From the sequence record NC_014467.1: 64,000 bases of DNA; one strand, 5' to 3'. Positions within the stretch are counted from its first letter, which is position 1; each line of letters begins with the position of its first letter. The DNA is from Escherichia phage RB16. A model generated the notes under the pieces. The model did not search any database. It had not been told where the DNA came from and saw only the letters and a program-made list of their open reading frames with translations. Below, piece after piece: positions 2,312 to 52,234 of the stretch. The position numbers were made by a program, and so were the translations under genes.

Positions 2312-4005
2312 AATTAAATTTCCGTAAAATTAAGTATCAAAACATCTTATCAGTGGGTAATACCCCGATCGAACTTGAATTCGATACTGCAAAGAAAACC
2401 CTGATCACGGGTAAAAATGGTGGTGGTAAATCCACACTGATCGAAGCGTTGACGTATGCTCTTTTTGGTAAATCATTTCGTGATTTAAAAGTCGGGCAAC
2501 TGGTAAACAGTGTCAACAAAAAGAAATGTCTGGTTGAACTGGATATTGAATACGGGAAAGATTCGTACAAAGTCGTTCGCGGACAAAAGCCGAAAGTATT
2601 CGAGATCTGGAAAAACGGTGATAAGTTAGCAGAAGATTCAGCAGCGGGTGATTATCAATCTCAGCTTGAATCCATGCTCAATATTAACCTGGTTGGATTC
2701 AAACAGGTAATCGTGTTGGGTACTGCTGGCTATACTCCATTCATGGAACTGAAAACACCGGATCGCCGTAAACTGGTTGAAGACCTGTTGTCGCTATCGG
2801 TTATCAGTGAAATGGATAAGCTGAACAAATCATATGTCCGTGGTGTTAATCAGCAGTTGGATACCCTGTCAATGCAGGTTAACCACATCCAGCAGCAGAT
2901 CGCTACACACCAGCGCTTCATTGATGAACAGCGAGCTAAAGCGAACCAGAACAACGCACGATACAAAGAGATCTACGATAGCCACGTTGAAACCGCTAAG
3001 AACATCAAAGCACAGCTTATGCAGTTGCAAGCGGAGATCGCAGAAACGGTGATCACTGGTGCAGACCGAACGGAAGATATAAACAAACTCCGTGATGGCT
3101 ATACGCGCCTCTCTATGACTGTAGAACAGTTTAAAAAGCTGGAAGTGATGTATCAGAAAGGTGGTGAGTGTCCGGCCTGTAAACAGGCGATTAAGCCCAC
3201 TCCTGAACGCATGGAAGAGATCGCAAACAACATCAAAGCGGGTACGCAACGATTAACGCTGATCAAAACCAAACAGGACGAGTTGCAAGGCATTATGAAC
3301 GAGTTGCTTCAACAGCAACGCGCACTGAATGCTATGAAAACGAAATACGAAGCCCTGAAAGGTACGCTGCAAAATGAAGTTGCCAACGCTAAACGCGCAC
3401 AAGCGATCATGGAACAGGCAAGCGCGGAAGTTGTTATTGATGAAGAACCTGTTAAGCAGTTACAACAACAGGAAGCAGATCTGAACGATAAACGTCAAGG
3501 ATATGTGAAAGAAAAATATATCCGTGGTATCGTTACAGATATGTTAAAAGATTCTGGTGTAAAAGCCAGCATCGTAAAACGTTATATCCCGTACTTCAAC
3601 AAGCAGATCGCATACTATCTGGATCTGTTGGGCGCTGACTACCAGTTCACTTTAGATGATGAATTCAACGAATCAATCAAATCACTGGGGCGCGATGATT
3701 TTAGTTACGCATCATTTAGCCAGGGTGAACGCGCACGAATCAACCTTGCGTTGCTTATGACCTGGCGTGATGTAACAAGTAAAGTTTCTGGTGTTGATTT
3801 ATCGCTTCTGGTACTAGATGAAATCTTTGATGGTGCAATGGATAAAGAAGGTGGATTTGCAGTCAGAGCATTACTGGATGATATTGAAGGTAATGTTATT
3901 GTAATCAGTCATCAGGATTTAGATCCACAAGAATTTCATCGACATATTGTTATGTCTAAAGTAGGGAGATTCACCAAATGCAAGATAGTAAACAATGATT
4001 ACTAA
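2308..4005 (+). CDS. 46: recombination endonuclease subunit gp46 (Rad50/SbcC-like ATPase)
   Basis: 565 aa; Walker A GKNGGGKST; long coiled-coil middle; aligns by eye to T4 gp46 N-terminus. Confidence 0.9.
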   Translation: MKLNFRKIKYQNILSVGNTPIELEFDTAKKTLITGKNGGGKSTLIEALTYALFGKSFRDLKVGQLVNSVNKKKCLVELDIEYGKDSYKVVRGQKPKVFEIWKNGDKLAEDSAAGDYQSQLESMLNINLVGFKQVIVLGTAGYTPFMELKTPDRRKLVEDLLSLSVISEMDKLNKSYVRGVNQQLDTLSMQVNHIQQQIATHQRFIDEQRAKANQNNARYKEIYDSHVETAKNIKAQLMQLQAEIAETVITGADRTEDINKLRDGYTRLSMTVEQFKKLEVMYQKGGECPACKQAIKPTPERMEEIANNIKAGTQRLTLIKTKQDELQGIMNELLQQQRALNAMKTKYEALKGTLQNEVANAKRAQAIMEQASAEVVIDEEPVKQLQQQEADLNDKRQGYVKEKYIRGIVTDMLKDSGVKASIVKRYIPYFNKQIAYYLDLLGADYQFTLDDEFNESIKSLGRDDFSYASFSQGERARINLALLMTWRDVTSKVSGVDLSLLVLDEIFDGAMDKEGGFAVRALLDDIEGNVIVISHQDLDPQEFHRHIVMSKVGRFTKCKIVNNDY

Positions 4006-46861: not shown

Positions 46862-46960
46862 TCATAAAACAGACGCAATAATCAATACACCAAGCAAACC
46901 GCCAATAAAGCCGAAGAATAGCGAAATGAAGATAGATAAGATGATCTGTTTTATGTTCAT
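46862..46960 (-). CDS. small hydrophobic peptide (32 aa), candidate membrane micro-protein
   Basis: Hand-translated MNIKQIILSIFISLFFGFIGGLLGVLIIASVL between SPFH and NMNAT genes; below ORF-track cut-off. Confidence 0.3.
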   Translation of the reverse strand: MNIKQIILSIFISLFFGFIGGLLGVLIIASVL

Positions 46961-47014: not shown

Positions 47015-47941
47015 TTATTTACGAGAATCGAAAATCACTTTACCAGCGTAATCTGAACCCATGACAGTCTGAGGCACATCACCTTTATAACGGGTAGAGT
47101 AGTTCATCTGTACATCCAGTTCTTTCCAGCGGATCATTTCTGGTGTGATGGTACGTTGCAACACGGCGTTCGCTTCTGCTTCTTTCTTCGCTGCATACAG
47201 TTTAGCGTCTGCATCACGTTCGTTGGCGATCGCATCGTTTTCACGCGCCTGACGATTTGCTTCCGCTTGTTTTACCTGTTGCTGTGAAGTCTGTTCGACT
47301 TTTGCCAGTTCCGCACGAGCGGCGTTAACCTGTTCTTCACGAATTTTCGTGTTAGTTACCTGTTCCATGATAACATCCGGCAGGGTGATATCCTGCAAGA
47401 ATACCTGTTTCACGGTGTAACCGTAAGGACGCGCATACTCTTCGACTTCCTGTTGAATTGCGGTCTGCAACTGGTTCTGGATCTTAGCATCAAACAGATC
47501 CTGTGCTTTTGGAACCGATTTGCCGAACTCGCGAACGGTTGACAGCAGTTTTTCGGTTACATACTTATCCAGTGCCTGTTCCTGGTCTCCCGCGTTGATG
47601 CGGTTGATAGGCGCTTTGTTACCGTCAAATTGCAGCATAACGGTCATATCAACAGTGGATTTAAACTTATCCTGTGAAGGAACCTGCAATTTATCGAACT
47701 TCTTCGCAATGTCTTTCGTGCTGAAAGTATCGAAATCAGCCAGCGGGTTTACGATATGGAAACCAGGCAGTACAGGTTTCGGAGAAACCTTACCCATGAA
47801 GGTCTGAGTTTTGACCGTGCCGTCCTGTACTACTGTAAAGGAGTTCGGAACCAGCCACAGTGCGGCTACTACGCCCAGAGCGATCAGAGTGGTTTTCTTC
47901 GGGTTGTTCAGGATAGTATTCATATTCATAGTATGTCTCAT
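47015..47941 (-). CDS. SPFH/Band-7 (prohibitin/HflK-like) membrane protein
   Basis: N-terminal TM helix, SPFH-like core, Ala/Glu/Gln-rich coiled coil. Confidence 0.65.
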   Translation of the reverse strand: MRHTMNMNTILNNPKKTTLIALGVVAALWLVPNSFTVVQDGTVKTQTFMGKVSPKPVLPGFHIVNPLADFDTFSTKDIAKKFDKLQVPSQDKFKSTVDMTVMLQFDGNKAPINRINAGDQEQALDKYVTEKLLSTVREFGKSVPKAQDLFDAKIQNQLQTAIQQEVEEYARPYGYTVKQVFLQDITLPDVIMEQVTNTKIREEQVNAARAELAKVEQTSQQQVKQAEANRQARENDAIANERDADAKLYAAKKEAEANAVLQRTITPEMIRWKELDVQMNYSTRYKGDVPQTVMGSDYAGKVIFDSRK

Positions 47942-48397: not shown

Positions 48398-48679
48398 TTA
48401 TGAACGATGAATAGAAGCGAATTCAGTTGCTACCCTAAGCCCTAAGCGTTTGCATTCAGGTTCAGATTTACACTGTTTCTGCTGCCATTTTCGTTCCATA
48501 TAATTATAGAAAAGTTCACTTGTATTTACGCTGGGAGGGATGGTGTCTAGATACACCTGTAGCGCTGCATTGATGTAGTAGTCGAATTCTTTCGGTACGA
48601 CTGAATCATCTGCGTGTGATGCTGGAGACAAGATTAACAAACCAAACATCAGCGCTTTGGATATGCGTTTAATGTTCAT
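48398..48679 (-). CDS. secreted/periplasmic small protein (~93 aa)
   Basis: Signal peptide MNIKRISKALMFGLLILSPASHA; start trimmed to second Met. Confidence 0.5.
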   Translation of the reverse strand: MNIKRISKALMFGLLILSPASHADDSVVPKEFDYYINAALQVYLDTIPPSVNTSELFYNYMERKWQQKQCKSEPECKRLGLRVATEFASIHRS

Positions 48680-48786
48680 AAGCAATTTCTCTACGTGCTT
48701 ACGGATCACCAATAGACCCGTTCCTGTATATATTTATAGCAAAAAAGGGGCAATAAACCCCTTATGTTAAATCAGTATAAAAATAA

Positions 48787-49179
48787 TCAGGTTATGTCAT
48801 ACCAGCATAAGCTACGCTCATATGCGCGGATCTTGTTGGCGTTTTCGATGTTTTCATCCCACCCAATTACACCAGCTTTCATCCGGCGCAATTCCTGACG
48901 CATCTTTTCACGAACTTTTGAATCTATGCGCTTCTTTGCAATTTCGAGCATAACGGAAATGTCACCATGTGCTTTGTTACCGTCGCGGTTCACGTTCTTA
49001 TCAAACCGGATATATGCGCAACCTGATTTGTGTTTCCAATTGGTTGTATACCAACGTAAACCATCAGGGCTTTCCCCGTGTTGTGCATAATACTGTGAAA
49101 ATGTTTTTGTCTCTTCGATCTGTTCGATAGAGGACTTATCACGGGCTGGAACATATTTGTTACGGTAAGTACGGCTCAT
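48787..49179 (-). CDS. hypothetical protein (130 aa)
   Basis: ORF track. Confidence 0.45.
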   Translation of the reverse strand: MSRTYRNKYVPARDKSSIEQIEETKTFSQYYAQHGESPDGLRWYTTNWKHKSGCAYIRFDKNVNRDGNKAHGDISVMLEIAKKRIDSKVREKMRQELRRMKAGVIGWDENIENANKIRAYERSLCWYDIT

Positions 49180-49209: not shown

Positions 49210-49794
49210 TTAACAGTTCACACCGACTTTATCAAGCACTTTTTCATGATAATGTTTCCGGCATAACGAAACATATTTGTCTTCGGCTCCGATTTCGACT
49301 TGCGCCCCTTCTGTTACGAAGTTGCATTGTGCGTCGATACGGGCGACCGTAGTTGCTTTACGTCCACAGTGACACATTCCCCGCAGTTCGCGGATCTCGT
49401 CAGCCCATGCAAGCAACCAGTAAGAACCCTCGAACAGATTCAACTGAAAGTCGGTACGCAACCCGTAGCACATCACAGGAATTTCGAGTTCATCGACAAC
49501 ACGACACAGATCGAAAACGTTTTTCTTCGAGAGGAATTGCGCTTCATCAACGAAGATGCAAGAGATATTATTCTGGCGCTGGATATCCCAGAACAGATCC
49601 ATACTTGGTGCAATCAGTTCGCAATTTGCATTTAGCCCTACACGAGAAGAAACGGTGTGCGACGTGCGAGTGTCAAGCATAGGCTTGTAGATCACAACGT
49701 TCATACCGCGTTCTTTGTAGTTGTATGCGTCTGTTAACAGTCGCGCACTTTTACCAGCGTTCATTGATGCGTAGTGATAATACAGTTTAGCCAT
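49210..49794 (-). CDS. tk: thymidine kinase
   Basis: 194 aa; P-loop SMNAGKS; aligns by eye with T4 Tk (VDEAQF, YGLRTDF, CHCG...C..H zinc ribbon). Confidence 0.9.
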   Translation of the reverse strand: MAKLYYHYASMNAGKSARLLTDAYNYKERGMNVVIYKPMLDTRTSHTVSSRVGLNANCELIAPSMDLFWDIQRQNNISCIFVDEAQFLSKKNVFDLCRVVDELEIPVMCYGLRTDFQLNLFEGSYWLLAWADEIRELRGMCHCGRKATTVARIDAQCNFVTEGAQVEIGAEDKYVSLCRKHYHEKVLDKVGVNC

Positions 49795-49999
49795 GTTTAG
49801 CCCGTTCCTCTGCTACCGCATCAAACACCGCGTCTTCAACTTCTTTTTCGACGAATGAAATGATTTCATCAACCATGCGATCGATGTATAATTGATTGAC
49901 ATTGCGCGAATCTGGATCATCTTCTGCTGCATAATCCTGGTAAAGTTCTCCCAGTTCTTTCAGCTTGTGCTTTAACACTTTTTCTTCTTGAACTCTCAT
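49787..49999 (-). CDS. hypothetical acidic protein (70 aa)
   Basis: ORF track. Confidence 0.45.
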   Translation of the reverse strand: MRVQEEKVLKHKLKELGELYQDYAAEDDPDSRNVNQLYIDRMVDEIISFVEKEVEDAVFDAVAEERAKHG

Positions 50000-50091
50000 T
50001 CTTTATTACCCATTTTATAGCCGATCCCAATGACCAGCCCCATCAAAATAACCGCGCTTATCAAAAGCGCGAATTGTAGACCTATGCTCAT
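49996..50091 (-). CDS. small hydrophobic peptide (31 aa)
   Basis: Hand-translated MSIGLQFALLISAVILMGLVIGIGYKMGNKE; ATGA overlaps with both neighbours. Confidence 0.3.
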   Translation of the reverse strand: MSIGLQFALLISAVILMGLVIGIGYKMGNKE

Positions 50092-50231
50092 TTAAATTGA
50101 TCGTCCCATAGTTGCCACGCTTCCAGTTCATCATTGTATTCAGGGAGTGAACGTTCCCCTGGTTTCTTGACGTAATACCAGATAATGATAGCAACGGCGA
50201 TAACAGTACCGTAAAAGATAATTAATCCCAT
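50088..50231 (-). CDS. small membrane protein (47 aa)
   Basis: Hand-translated MGLIIFYGTVIAVAIIIWYYVKKPGERSLPEYNDELEAWQLWDDQFK; overlapping start/stop coupling. Confidence 0.3.
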   Translation of the reverse strand: MGLIIFYGTVIAVAIIIWYYVKKPGERSLPEYNDELEAWQLWDDQFK

Positions 50232-50557
50232 TAGTATAATCCTATTCCGGCGTTATATTCATCCACCAGATAGGTACGCAGTTTTTCGCAGCGTTCCTTA
50301 TTCGGTGCGCGGGTACAGAGTTTCATCATTGGTTCAGACTGCAAAAACTCACGCTGTTTAACCAGCTTCTGACGCTTATACAGGTGCGCATTTTCTTCGC
50401 CCCACACATAAGCCGCGTCGAGTTGTTCCGCGATCACCTGGTAACATACCGCAGTATCTTTAATGTCTCGATGGTCGCAGAGTTCAGACAGACGGTTGTC
50501 ATCAACAGCGAACACGGAACCAGAAACCAAAGTCAGCAACAGCGCAAGTTTTTTCAT
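50231..50557 (-). CDS. periplasmic Cys-containing protein (108 aa), possibly rI-like
   Basis: Signal peptide MKKLALLLTLVSGSVFA; sits upstream of tk as rI does in T4. Confidence 0.45.
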   Translation of the reverse strand: MKKLALLLTLVSGSVFAVDDNRLSELCDHRDIKDTAVCYQVIAEQLDAAYVWGEENAHLYKRQKLVKQREFLQSEPMMKLCTRAPNKERCEKLRTYLVDEYNAGIGLY

Positions 50558-50559
50558 TA

Positions 50560-50961
50560 TTACTCTCCCAGTACGTAAACAAAGCGGTCTTCGATTGAAT
50601 CGTTAACACATTCGTAAATTCCCCCAGCGCGTACAGCTTTACGAATGCCGGATTTTACGATTTCCATGATCTCTTTGTTGCTTCCCCATACATTCAAATT
50701 GAAGTATAGCGCACATTCGATTGGATAGTCTTCTACGTTGCGATACACATCATCACTTTCACATACAAACAGTATGCGCTTTTCTTCTCCATATTCGAAG
50801 TAAATGCTAAACGCGTTCATACTGTTTTTATCAACAGTGATTTGAGTGATTTTAACGTTCGGTTTGCTTTTGAGTTCAGCAAGAACACTCTGAATAATAG
50901 ATAACGCATTCAGTTTAATAAGTCCGCATTTTCCTACAATAACACGATGTGATGTACTCAT
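50560..50961 (-). CDS. hypothetical protein (133 aa)
   Basis: ORF downstream of promoter cassette. Confidence 0.5.
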   Translation of the reverse strand: MSTSHRVIVGKCGLIKLNALSIIQSVLAELKSKPNVKITQITVDKNSMNAFSIYFEYGEEKRILFVCESDDVYRNVEDYPIECALYFNLNVWGSNKEIMEIVKSGIRKAVRAGGIYECVNDSIEDRFVYVLGE

Positions 50962-51028
50962 AATTCAATCCTCAATAGTTGGTACACACATAATAAAAAA
51001 GCCCCTGCAAAAATGCAAGGGCTTTCGA
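50962..51028 (-). promoter_or_regulatory. promoter/stem-loop cassette (TTGCAT in hairpin AGCCCTTGCATTTTTGCAGGGGCT, 17-bp spacer, TATTAT)
   Basis: Read on minus strand. Confidence 0.55.
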
Positions 51029-51388
51029 TTAAATAATTTGCTTTTCTTCTAACAGTTTCGCGGTATGGTTAACCATGCGAGCATAATCACGGGCTTCTTT
51101 CTTCGTATACTTGAAGCCCGCGTTATAGCTTGCCAGCGCCTTTTTCAAGTCGCCTTTGTGGTAATCAAGCCAGTATTCCAGTTCATGAATGGCAAACTTA
51201 GAACCTCCCCGAAGGGATTCGAGCTTATTGATTACTACGCGTTTGGAATATGATTTATCCATCCGTGCGGAAGCACTGTTTACAGTGACTTGCCAACAGC
51301 CATAAGCATGATGACCTTTTTTGCCCTTTCCGGTGTTCTCACATGCGCGAGATTCGATCCAGGCGATAGCCGCTAAATGATATCCCAA
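51029..51388 (-). CDS. lytic transglycosylase (SLT) catalytic domain, possibly the 3' part of a frameshifted gene
   Basis: AIAWIESR...GCWQV...ASYNAGFKY motifs; ORF begins at TTG with no RBS and overlaps upstream ORF. Confidence 0.5.
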   Translation of the reverse strand: MGYHLAAIAWIESRACENTGKGKKGHHAYGCWQVTVNSASARMDKSYSKRVVINKLESLRGGSKFAIHELEYWLDYHKGDLKKALASYNAGFKYTKKEARDYARMVNHTAKLLEEKQII

Positions 51389-51677
51389 ACGTTTCGATTT
51401 TTCTTTTTTCAGCAGGTTTTGCAGTCGTTAGATCATAGTCGTTGCCAACTCTGAAAGCATACTCCAAAACCTTTTTCTGCTTTGGTGTAATTTCGTCCAA
51501 TTCCTTGACATATGCAGGGGCATTGGCTGGTGCTTTCTTGATCACTGTTGCCTGTTGAAGCGGAAGTGTTGACTGAACAGCAGGAAGTTTTTCGATGAAT
51601 TCTCCTAGCGGATCTGTCTTTGCGTGACCAGAAAAAGAGCATAAGAAAATGAAAGGTAGTATCCATTTGAATCTCAT
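51339..51677 (-). CDS. signal-peptide protein, possibly the 5' part of the SLT gene
   Basis: Signal peptide MRFKWILPFIFLCSFSGHA; ends in a poly-A tract where a 1-nt shift joins the SLT frame. Confidence 0.45.
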   Translation of the reverse strand: MRFKWILPFIFLCSFSGHAKTDPLGEFIEKLPAVQSTLPLQQATVIKKAPANAPAYVKELDEITPKQKKVLEYAFRVGNDYDLTTAKPAEKRKIETFGISFSGYRLDRISRM

Positions 51678-52234
51678 GGGCTTTCCTTATTATAAAAAGT
51701 TCCAAAATTTAACAACGCTGATTTTTTATAAGCGTTGCTTGCTTCTTCAGGATCATCAAAAGATCCCAAGTAGGTTGCTTTACCATTAATGGTTATTTGA
51801 GCAATCCACTTTTCATTTATAGTATTCCAAGTAACACCGATAAAACCAGAAGTATTAGTTTTCATCATACTTTTCTTTTGCTGATTTTGAGTATTAGTCA
51901 CTTCTTGCAAGTTGTCAATACCATCACCAAAAGAAACACCTTTCTTATGATCAATCATAACAGGAAGAGTACCTGTAGATACATAATACACGATGCGGTG
52001 TCTTCTAAACTGCTTTCCTTTGAAGTTTATAACGGTATATCCATCTTTCCGCAAGGTTCCTGCAAAAGAACCAACTTTAATTTTTCGGTTAGTTGATTTT
52101 ATCCATACACACGTACCGGAAACAACGTCAACGCTGATATATTCAAGTAATTCATCAATCAGTTGTTTTTCTTCTGATAGTGTACGCTCTCCCCATCCAT
52201 AAGATTTAGTCATGTTTAATACCTTTTGTAACAA
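51674..52234 (-). CDS. HNH-AP2 homing endonuclease (paralog 6)
   Basis: HNH motif (IDHKKGVSFGDGIDNL...NTQNQ) + AP2-like (FIGVTWNTINEKWIAQI). Confidence 0.8.
   Translation of the reverse strand: MLQKVLNMTKSYGWGERTLSEEKQLIDELLEYISVDVVSGTCVWIKSTNRKIKVGSFAGTLRKDGYTVINFKGKQFRRHRIVYYVSTGTLPVMIDHKKGVSFGDGIDNLQEVTNTQNQQKKSMMKTNTSGFIGVTWNTINEKWIAQITINGKATYLGSFDDPEEASNAYKKSALLNFGTFYNKESP

Follow-up and report, generated by a model that had tools for sequence, protein, structure and literature searches.

What a chain of very small, overlapping genes upstream of the thymidine kinase gene (tk) contributes to infection is the question raised by one locus of Escherichia phage RB16 (NC_014467.1). The 64,000 nt stretch analysed is referred to as the window, and all positions are counted within it. 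A preliminary description had read the minus strand as a periplasmic Cys-containing protein followed by two membrane micro-proteins, had likened the neighbourhood to that of the T4 lysis-inhibition gene rI, and had suggested lysis-timing or superinfection-exclusion roles. The region is the vs-to-tk segment of a T4-type phage of the RB43 group. The 108-amino-acid (aa) gene is, as judged by profile family and position, the ortholog of T4 vs; the two micro-genes behind it are genuine; and Vs carries a conserved export signature. The coordinates and overlaps first given for the 108-, 47-, 31- and 70-aa open reading frames (ORFs) and tk are correct, and the genes of the segment are as follows.

50560–50961, minus strand: 133-aa ORF, PHROG 8072; first gene after the vs.1 terminator, with its stop 2 nt before the vs start
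50231–50557, minus strand: 108-aa ORF, assigned as the vs ortholog
50088–50231, minus strand: 47-aa ORF, micro-protein
49996–50091, minus strand: 31-aa ORF, micro-protein
49787–49999, minus strand: 70-aa acidic ORF, PHROG 12899; couples the chain into tk
49210–49794, minus strand: tk, thymidine kinase (Pfam TK, E 2e-49)
48787–49179, minus strand: 130-aa ORF

From the 108-aa ORF through to tk the junctions are, in order, TAATG (a 1-nt overlap), ATGA, ATGA and ATGGCTAA. Stop-start overlap chains are the usual gene packing of T4-type early regions, and the chain itself is ordinary. By megablast the segment belongs to Pseudotevenvirus, RB43 group, with 98.1% identity to Escherichia phage Lw1 and 83–88% to Miller, CfP1, RB43 and GuL6; 164 phage records match it in total.

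Several lines of evidence identify the 108-aa protein. It matches PHROG 1256, ‘valyl tRNA synthetase modifier’, over residues 1–106 (E 4.3e-23), as does T4 Vs (E 1.7e-39), and pairwise BLASTP of the window protein against T4 Vs gives 28% identity (E 1e-5). Close homologs, including the 92%-identical P0001, bear the precomputed Pfam assignment PF26829 ValRS_modifier. The gene lies as in T4, downstream of vs.1 (SLT) and upstream of tk.4/tk, and the order vs.1, one to three genes, vs, ..., tk, ..., rI agrees with T4. The two proteins are also alike in length (115 aa in T4, 108 aa here), in a signal-peptide-like N-terminus and in four Cys forming two local pairs. The layouts differ at two points: the T4 vs stop overlaps tk.4 directly, whereas two micro-ORFs follow vs in the window, and a terminator and the 133-aa gene stand between vs.1 and vs, unlike T4. 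Binding of valyl-tRNA synthetase (ValRS) is a biochemical property reported for T4 Vs alone, to which the window protein is likened by sequence. The ratio of nonsynonymous to synonymous substitution rates (dN/dS) of vs is 0.02–0.25. The AlphaFold2 (AF2) model of Vs (pLDDT 76) has helices at residues 20–27, 35–72, 75–78 and 87–103. A PDB sequence search returned chance matches alone. When 1.84 billion representative proteins were searched by profile, the matches were phage relatives (P0026, P0028) and, beyond these, just two spurious repeat proteins.

By family and by position after vs.1, the T4 counterpart at this place is therefore vs, and not rI as had been proposed; the true rI is found at 48398–48712. 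T4 RI does resemble Vs in its small size (about 95–105 aa), its signal-like N-terminus, its helical domain predicted to be periplasmic, its C-x(5–8)-C pair near the C-terminus and its genomic neighbourhood, yet it has no detectable homology to Vs, and the window has a separate rI with its own late-promoter motif. Vs as a paralog of RI was considered and rejected: hhalign of a 9-member Vs alignment against a 4-member RI alignment gave a probability of 6%, with only the signal peptides aligned. Vs has no Pfam match to the Antiholin profile PF24205 at E ≤ 0.1, and no fold similarity to RI was found.

The 47-aa protein consists of a transmembrane (TM) helix at residues 2–22, a KKPGERSLP linker and an acidic, Trp-rich helix (EYNDELEAWQLWDDQ), with the acidic tail reading YNDELEAWQLWDDQFK. 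Its AF2 model places helices at residues 2–22 and 32–46, and its Kyte-Doolittle maximum over 19 residues is 2.31, which is of transmembrane grade. Its start overlaps the vs stop (TAATG), with an AGGA Shine-Dalgarno sequence 8 nt upstream. The distant members of the family are a 55-aa protein of Pectobacterium phage POP12 and a 43-aa protein of a metagenomic locus, L016 (L numbers are our locus labels); I15, E26, Y32, D34, W42 and D43 are kept in them, giving the tail motif YxDE...WxxWD. This acidic Trp-rich helix is likely the interaction surface of the protein. A scan of viral contigs with the family found close relatives only. The 31-aa product (MSIGLQFALLISAVILMGLVIGIGYKMGNKE) is a single-pass membrane micro-protein with a Kyte-Doolittle 19-residue maximum of 2.56, again of transmembrane grade. 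Its ORF overlaps both neighbours through ATGA and is preceded by a weak Shine-Dalgarno sequence, and therefore probably relies on translational coupling. From these features, both products would insert in the inner membrane as one TM helix each. The positive-inside rule would favour an N-out/C-in orientation, given KK after the TM helix of the 47-aa protein and K26 and K30 after that of the 31-aa protein.

The substitution pattern indicates that both micro-ORFs are genuine genes under purifying selection in their own frame. Differences from relatives fall mostly at third codon positions. Between the window and RB43 the 47-aa gene has 20 synonymous and 8 nonsynonymous changes, the proportions of synonymous and nonsynonymous sites changed (pS and pN) being 0.71 and 0.07; the 31-aa gene has 10.5 and 8.5 such changes. 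Summed over pairs, pN/pS of the 47-aa gene is 0.16 in frame versus 1.28 and 1.57 in the other two frames, and that of the 31-aa gene is 0.38 in frame versus 0.67 and 2.33 out of frame. Because of the third-position bias, and because pN/pS is low in the annotated frame only, the micro-ORFs are taken to be more than chance frames. The 47-aa protein matches PHROG 10683 (E 1.1e-35) and the 31-aa protein PHROG 16377 (E 2.8e-6), to which the homolog in Slopekvirus Matisse also belongs (E 4e-23); Pfam and NCBIfam gave no match to either. By tblastn the 47-aa gene is present in 60 phage records, and the 31-aa gene at the syntenic position in 79 records. Frame-specific selection, PHROG matches and recurrence after vs thus agree in showing the micro-ORFs conserved in relatives, one of the two points on which the preliminary description had made its case depend.

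That both ORFs are chance frames, or spacer or coupling elements without a functional product, accordingly has next to no credibility. The ORFs are very short, and the 31-aa ORF (CPTMiller_00148 in Miller) is unannotated in Lw1 RefSeq, RB43 and GuL6, which would fit such a view; the frame-specific purifying selection and the PHROG matches of both ORFs oppose it, as does the retention of length, hydrophobicity and motifs down to phages whose Vs is 42% identical. Annotation of the pair is uneven, with hypothetical proteins deposited in Miller, Margaery, Matisse and EC-F1 and entries missing from Lw1 RefSeq, RB43, GuL6 and GAP161. In the RB43 record, the conserved 31-aa TM ORF at 3677–3772 lacks annotation. 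A literature search found no paper discussing the micro-ORFs.

Vs itself begins with MKK followed by LALLLTLVSGSVFA and then VDD; codons 1–17 (50507–50557) are a predicted signal peptide, with cleavage at VFA|VDD. Signal-peptide calls were made by a rule-based parse of n-, h- and c-regions and the (−3,−1) site, applied to 13 Vs sequences of 28–100% identity (the window, RB43, Matisse, POP12, five metagenomic sequences, T4, RB69, IME341 and PWKp18). All 13 have a basic n-region, an uncharged h-region of 9–21 residues and a small-residue (−3,−1) site, and in every one the mature part contains four Cys, neither more nor fewer, arranged as two local pairs; in the window protein these are Cys27, Cys38, Cys81 and Cys90. 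The predicted cleavage of T4 Vs is ASA|DTS. The signal region drifts and the mature region is highly conserved, with 46 invariant columns among the 13 sequences and the four Cys invariant. The N-terminus of the window protein has a Kyte-Doolittle 19-residue maximum of 1.36, below transmembrane grade and of signal-peptide grade. Additionally, the annotators of phage KLB3 independently recorded a signal peptide on their copy of Vs. After cleavage the window protein, which is helical in its mature part, would have a mass of 10.7 kDa and T4 Vs one of 11.0 kDa; the classical ValRS-modifying factor of T4 is said to be of about 10 kDa.

Since the export signature is conserved in all 13 sequences, export is predicted despite the cytoplasmic label. 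Vs would leave the cytoplasm via Sec, with cleavage after VFA, and two local disulfides would stabilise it. Such a signature is at odds with the family name, which implies a role in the cytoplasm; a literature search found no paper on a Vs signal peptide or on its conflict with that name.

Seven genes, from the 133-aa ORF to the 130-aa ORF, are bracketed by two same-strand terminator-like hairpins. The regulatory features and rI are located as follows.

50997–51026, minus strand: intrinsic terminator-like hairpin after vs.1, with a 13-bp stem and then a T-run; bounds the unit upstream
48745–48763, minus strand: terminator-like hairpin that follows the 130-aa ORF and bounds the unit downstream
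48731–48738, minus strand: T4-type late-promoter motif TATAAATA, between the terminator at 48745–48763 and the rI start
48398–48712, minus strand: rI antiholin gene (Pfam PF24205 Antiholin, E 4e-26; PHROG 1246)
50052–50072, minus strand: terminator-like hairpin in the 31-aa ORF, TCGCGCTTTTGATAAGCGCGG then a T-rich tail

The genes for the 133-aa protein, Vs, the 47-, 31- and 70-aa proteins, thymidine kinase and the 130-aa protein form one polycistronic unit between two terminators, from about 50995 to 48745. The terminator after vs.1 is already annotated in Miller, Margaery and Matisse. A scan of the 64-kb window found no late-promoter motif inside the vs-tk unit; the copy directly upstream of rI is the sole one in the window, which suggests that the rest of the window is of early/middle type. 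An alternative ATG start of rI at 48679 would give a 93-aa protein. The hairpin at 50052–50072 was tried as a terminator and treated as chance, being not conserved in RB43, though CfP1 annotates a terminator there.

What follows vs differs from phage to phage, as listed here.

POP12 (Vs 42% identical): 43-aa TM ORF, then 55-aa TM ORF
L016 (Vs 62%): 43-aa TM ORF, then 31-aa TM ORF
L017 (Vs 62%): 33-aa TM ORF
L018 (Vs 71%): uncalled 34-aa TM ORF, with its start at the vs stop
Slopekvirus (Matisse): 38-, 37- and 32-aa TM ORFs
T4, RB69, PWKp18, IME341 and L012: tk.4 or tk directly
L014: YadA-anchor protein

Depending on lineage, then, zero to three membrane micro-genes occupy the slot between vs and adfM/tk, a variable cassette that is frequent in the RB43/KP15-like clade. 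POP12, L016, L017, L018, Matisse and Margaery have one to three TM micro-ORFs beginning at or near the vs stop, and such ORFs recur directly after vs where Vs is just 42–62% identical. CPTMiller_00149/00148 of Miller, 146/145 of Margaery and 143/142/141 of Matisse are either direct homologs or counterparts by position, coupled through stop-start overlaps in the same way; across Pseudotevenvirus and Slopekvirus cassettes both the number (1–3) and the sequence families vary. Margaery, GAP161 and EC-F1 have a different 32-aa TM peptide at the 31-aa slot (PHROG 34526), and the 33-aa form of L017 (MSIG...DDYDNDY) bridges both 31/32-aa types. In L014 (metagenomic contig SRR9850926_2291, 2501–3826), which has the gene context of a T4-type phage, the gene after that of a Vs homolog (58% identity) encodes 296 aa with a signal peptide and a YadA_anchor domain, making the product an outer-membrane protein like a trimeric autotransporter.

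The reading that we favour, at somewhat better than an even chance, is that Vs and the 47- and 31-aa proteins are an accessory, host-adaptive module acting on the host envelope in early/mid-infection, and not a lysis-inhibition sensor of the RI type; within this reading, the envelope function itself is held with low confidence. Ribosomes finishing one gene could restart on the next through the stop-start overlaps, from vs to tk. Vs would be exported and the 47- and 31-aa proteins would sit in the inner membrane, so that the module would act on the cell envelope, where it may bind or modulate, for example, a host membrane or periplasmic component. Expression in early/mid-infection is suggested because the unit has no late-promoter motif and is co-transcribed with tk, while rI has its own TATAAATA after a terminator. 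The small single-pass membrane regulators of E. coli (AcrZ, MgrB, MgtS) and the T4 exclusion proteins Imm and Sp offer analogies to the micro-proteins in size (30–50 aa), in a single TM helix and in presumed binding of larger envelope proteins; they are likened by description, and no sequence relationship to the micro-proteins was found.

Several points weigh against an envelope module. The classical literature gives T4 Vs a cytoplasmic target, ValRS; the phage factor that binds it was described by Muller and Marchin (1975/1977), as cited in a passage of PMC8076793. T4 vs is the most strongly depleted gene in M9 glucose medium, where its deletion impairs plaque formation (bioRxiv 10.1101/2025.11.20.689424), and this minimal-medium phenotype does not obviously point to the envelope. 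Vs does not need the micro-ORFs, because T4, RB69, PWKp18, IME341 and L012 have vs without them. PHROGs 10683 and 16377 are families without an assigned function, and neither experiment nor homology gives the micro-proteins a role. KK follows the TM helix of the 47-aa protein here, but its L016 homolog is without any K or R, and the N-out/C-in orientation is therefore tentative for that family. Lastly, a sigma-70 scan and a MotA-box pattern search found no promoter near the operon.

The rivals, in decreasing weight, are a cytoplasmic ValRS modifier, lysis-inhibition or exclusion factors, depolarising peptides and the chance ORFs already discussed. If Vs were a cytoplasmic ValRS modifier, its N-terminus would not be a functional signal peptide and the micro-proteins would be unrelated passengers of a variable region. 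The T4 reports of a ValRS-binding phage factor speak for this, the T4 vs phenotype in minimal medium is in keeping with amino-acid or translation physiology, and many Tevenvirinae carry vs without a micro-ORF. However, signal architecture and four paired Cys in 13/13 members, combined with a drifting signal sequence, form a pattern that cleaved signals and disulfide-bonded exported proteins typically show, and this alternative is judged unlikely. A lower probability still is given to the suggestion first made for the locus, that the three proteins act in the periplasm or membrane as factors of lysis timing (RI-like) or superinfection exclusion. The predicted periplasmic or membrane location fits, the unit is of early type like the T4 exclusion genes imm and sp, and rI lies within the same 2-kb neighbourhood; it is 1.5 kb away from the three small genes and in a separate transcription unit. 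From the preliminary description, the placement of a periplasmic Cys protein and two membrane micro-proteins stands as a prediction, resting on sequence features and conservation, and the lysis-timing function does not. Membrane-permeabilising peptides, holin/pinholin-like or type I toxin-like, that depolarise the host would account for micro-proteins that are each a single very hydrophobic helix of 31–47 aa, and a Slopekvirus neighbour of the cassette is labelled ‘holin’ in phage KLB3. That label is without supporting evidence, though, and there is no adjacent endolysin, the neighbours being tk and vs. A unit co-transcribed with tk and free of a late-promoter motif also speaks against permeabilisers, and the conserved part of the 47-aa family is the soluble acidic tail, not the TM helix. 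Such peptides are therefore considered very improbable.

An envelope module at this locus admits a wider and more tentative generalisation, to which we give clearly less than an even chance: the Vs family, T4 Vs included, may consist of Sec-exported, disulfide-stapled periplasmic proteins that in RB43-like phages work with one to three co-translated micro-proteins as an envelope module. If so, ‘valyl-tRNA synthetase modifier’ would be a mis-assignment of ORF 60.9 or would describe an indirect or post-lysis effect, and T4 would need vs in minimal medium for reasons of envelope physiology and not of translation.

The downstream end of the cassette has been reshaped in RB16. Alignment with Lw1 and RB43 shows that tk.4 and a 58-aa gene present in both are absent from the window, and the break can be placed at a single junction.

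49996–50002, minus strand: AGAATGA junction of the deletion; the same 7 nt stand at both ends of the missing segment in Lw1 (L001, 3602–4251)

The break thus falls exactly between two identical AGAATGA stop-start junctions and translational coupling is preserved. The deletion being clean, the 31-aa ORF is now coupled straight to the 70-aa ORF, a direct junction unique to the window among the compared cassettes, since tk.4 and the 58-aa gene are absent. Phage Miller is without tk.4 only. The T4 tk.4 product has been named AdfM, an anti-DarTG2 macrodomain (bioRxiv 10.1101/2025.11.20.689424), and RB16, being without tk.4, would be expected to be sensitive to DarTG2. In the RB43 record (L002, 3769–4261) small indels relative to Lw1 and GuL6 break tk.4 up into ORF148c (30 aa) and a shortened tk.4.

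Other irregularities lie outside the unit. The vs.1 gene (51029–51677, minus strand), which encodes a signal-peptide-bearing SLT lytic transglycosylase of 215 aa in Lw1, is broken here into ORFs of 112 and 119 aa: an A-run near 51409 is one A longer (A6 versus A5 in Lw1), either a real frameshift or a homopolymer sequencing error; the first ~9 vs.1 codons are also unlike Lw1. Directly upstream of vs.1 a 186-aa ORF (51674–52234, minus strand) is inserted, which is absent at this site in Lw1. It matches HNH_3 (E 3e-4) and AP2 (E 2e-5), both below gathering thresholds, and is homing-endonuclease-like; the Lw1 genome paper reports that phage to be without AP2 endonuclease genes (PMC3861415). Additionally, an unlisted, very hydrophobic 32-aa micro-ORF (MNIKQIILSIFISLFFGFIGGLLGVLIIASVL) at 46862–46960, minus strand, is conserved in Lw1 and RB43 and lies just downstream of a gene for a 308-aa Band_7/SPFH-like membrane protein (47015–47941).

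The genes of the chain belong to already catalogued families of unknown or doubtful function, and the record of the locus is now corrected: the ‘periplasmic protein’ is the vs ortholog, rI lies elsewhere, and the micro-ORFs are real genes, annotated in some relatives and missed in others. A family named for the modification of a cytoplasmic enzyme carries a universal export signature; this conflict bears on a 50-year-old puzzle in T4, and recent work has shown vs to matter under certain conditions. Behind vs lies a slot that serves as a reservoir of membrane micro-proteins, rapid in turnover and under selection. Annotation systematically misses proteins of this sort, which are plausible factors in host range or envelope adaptation.
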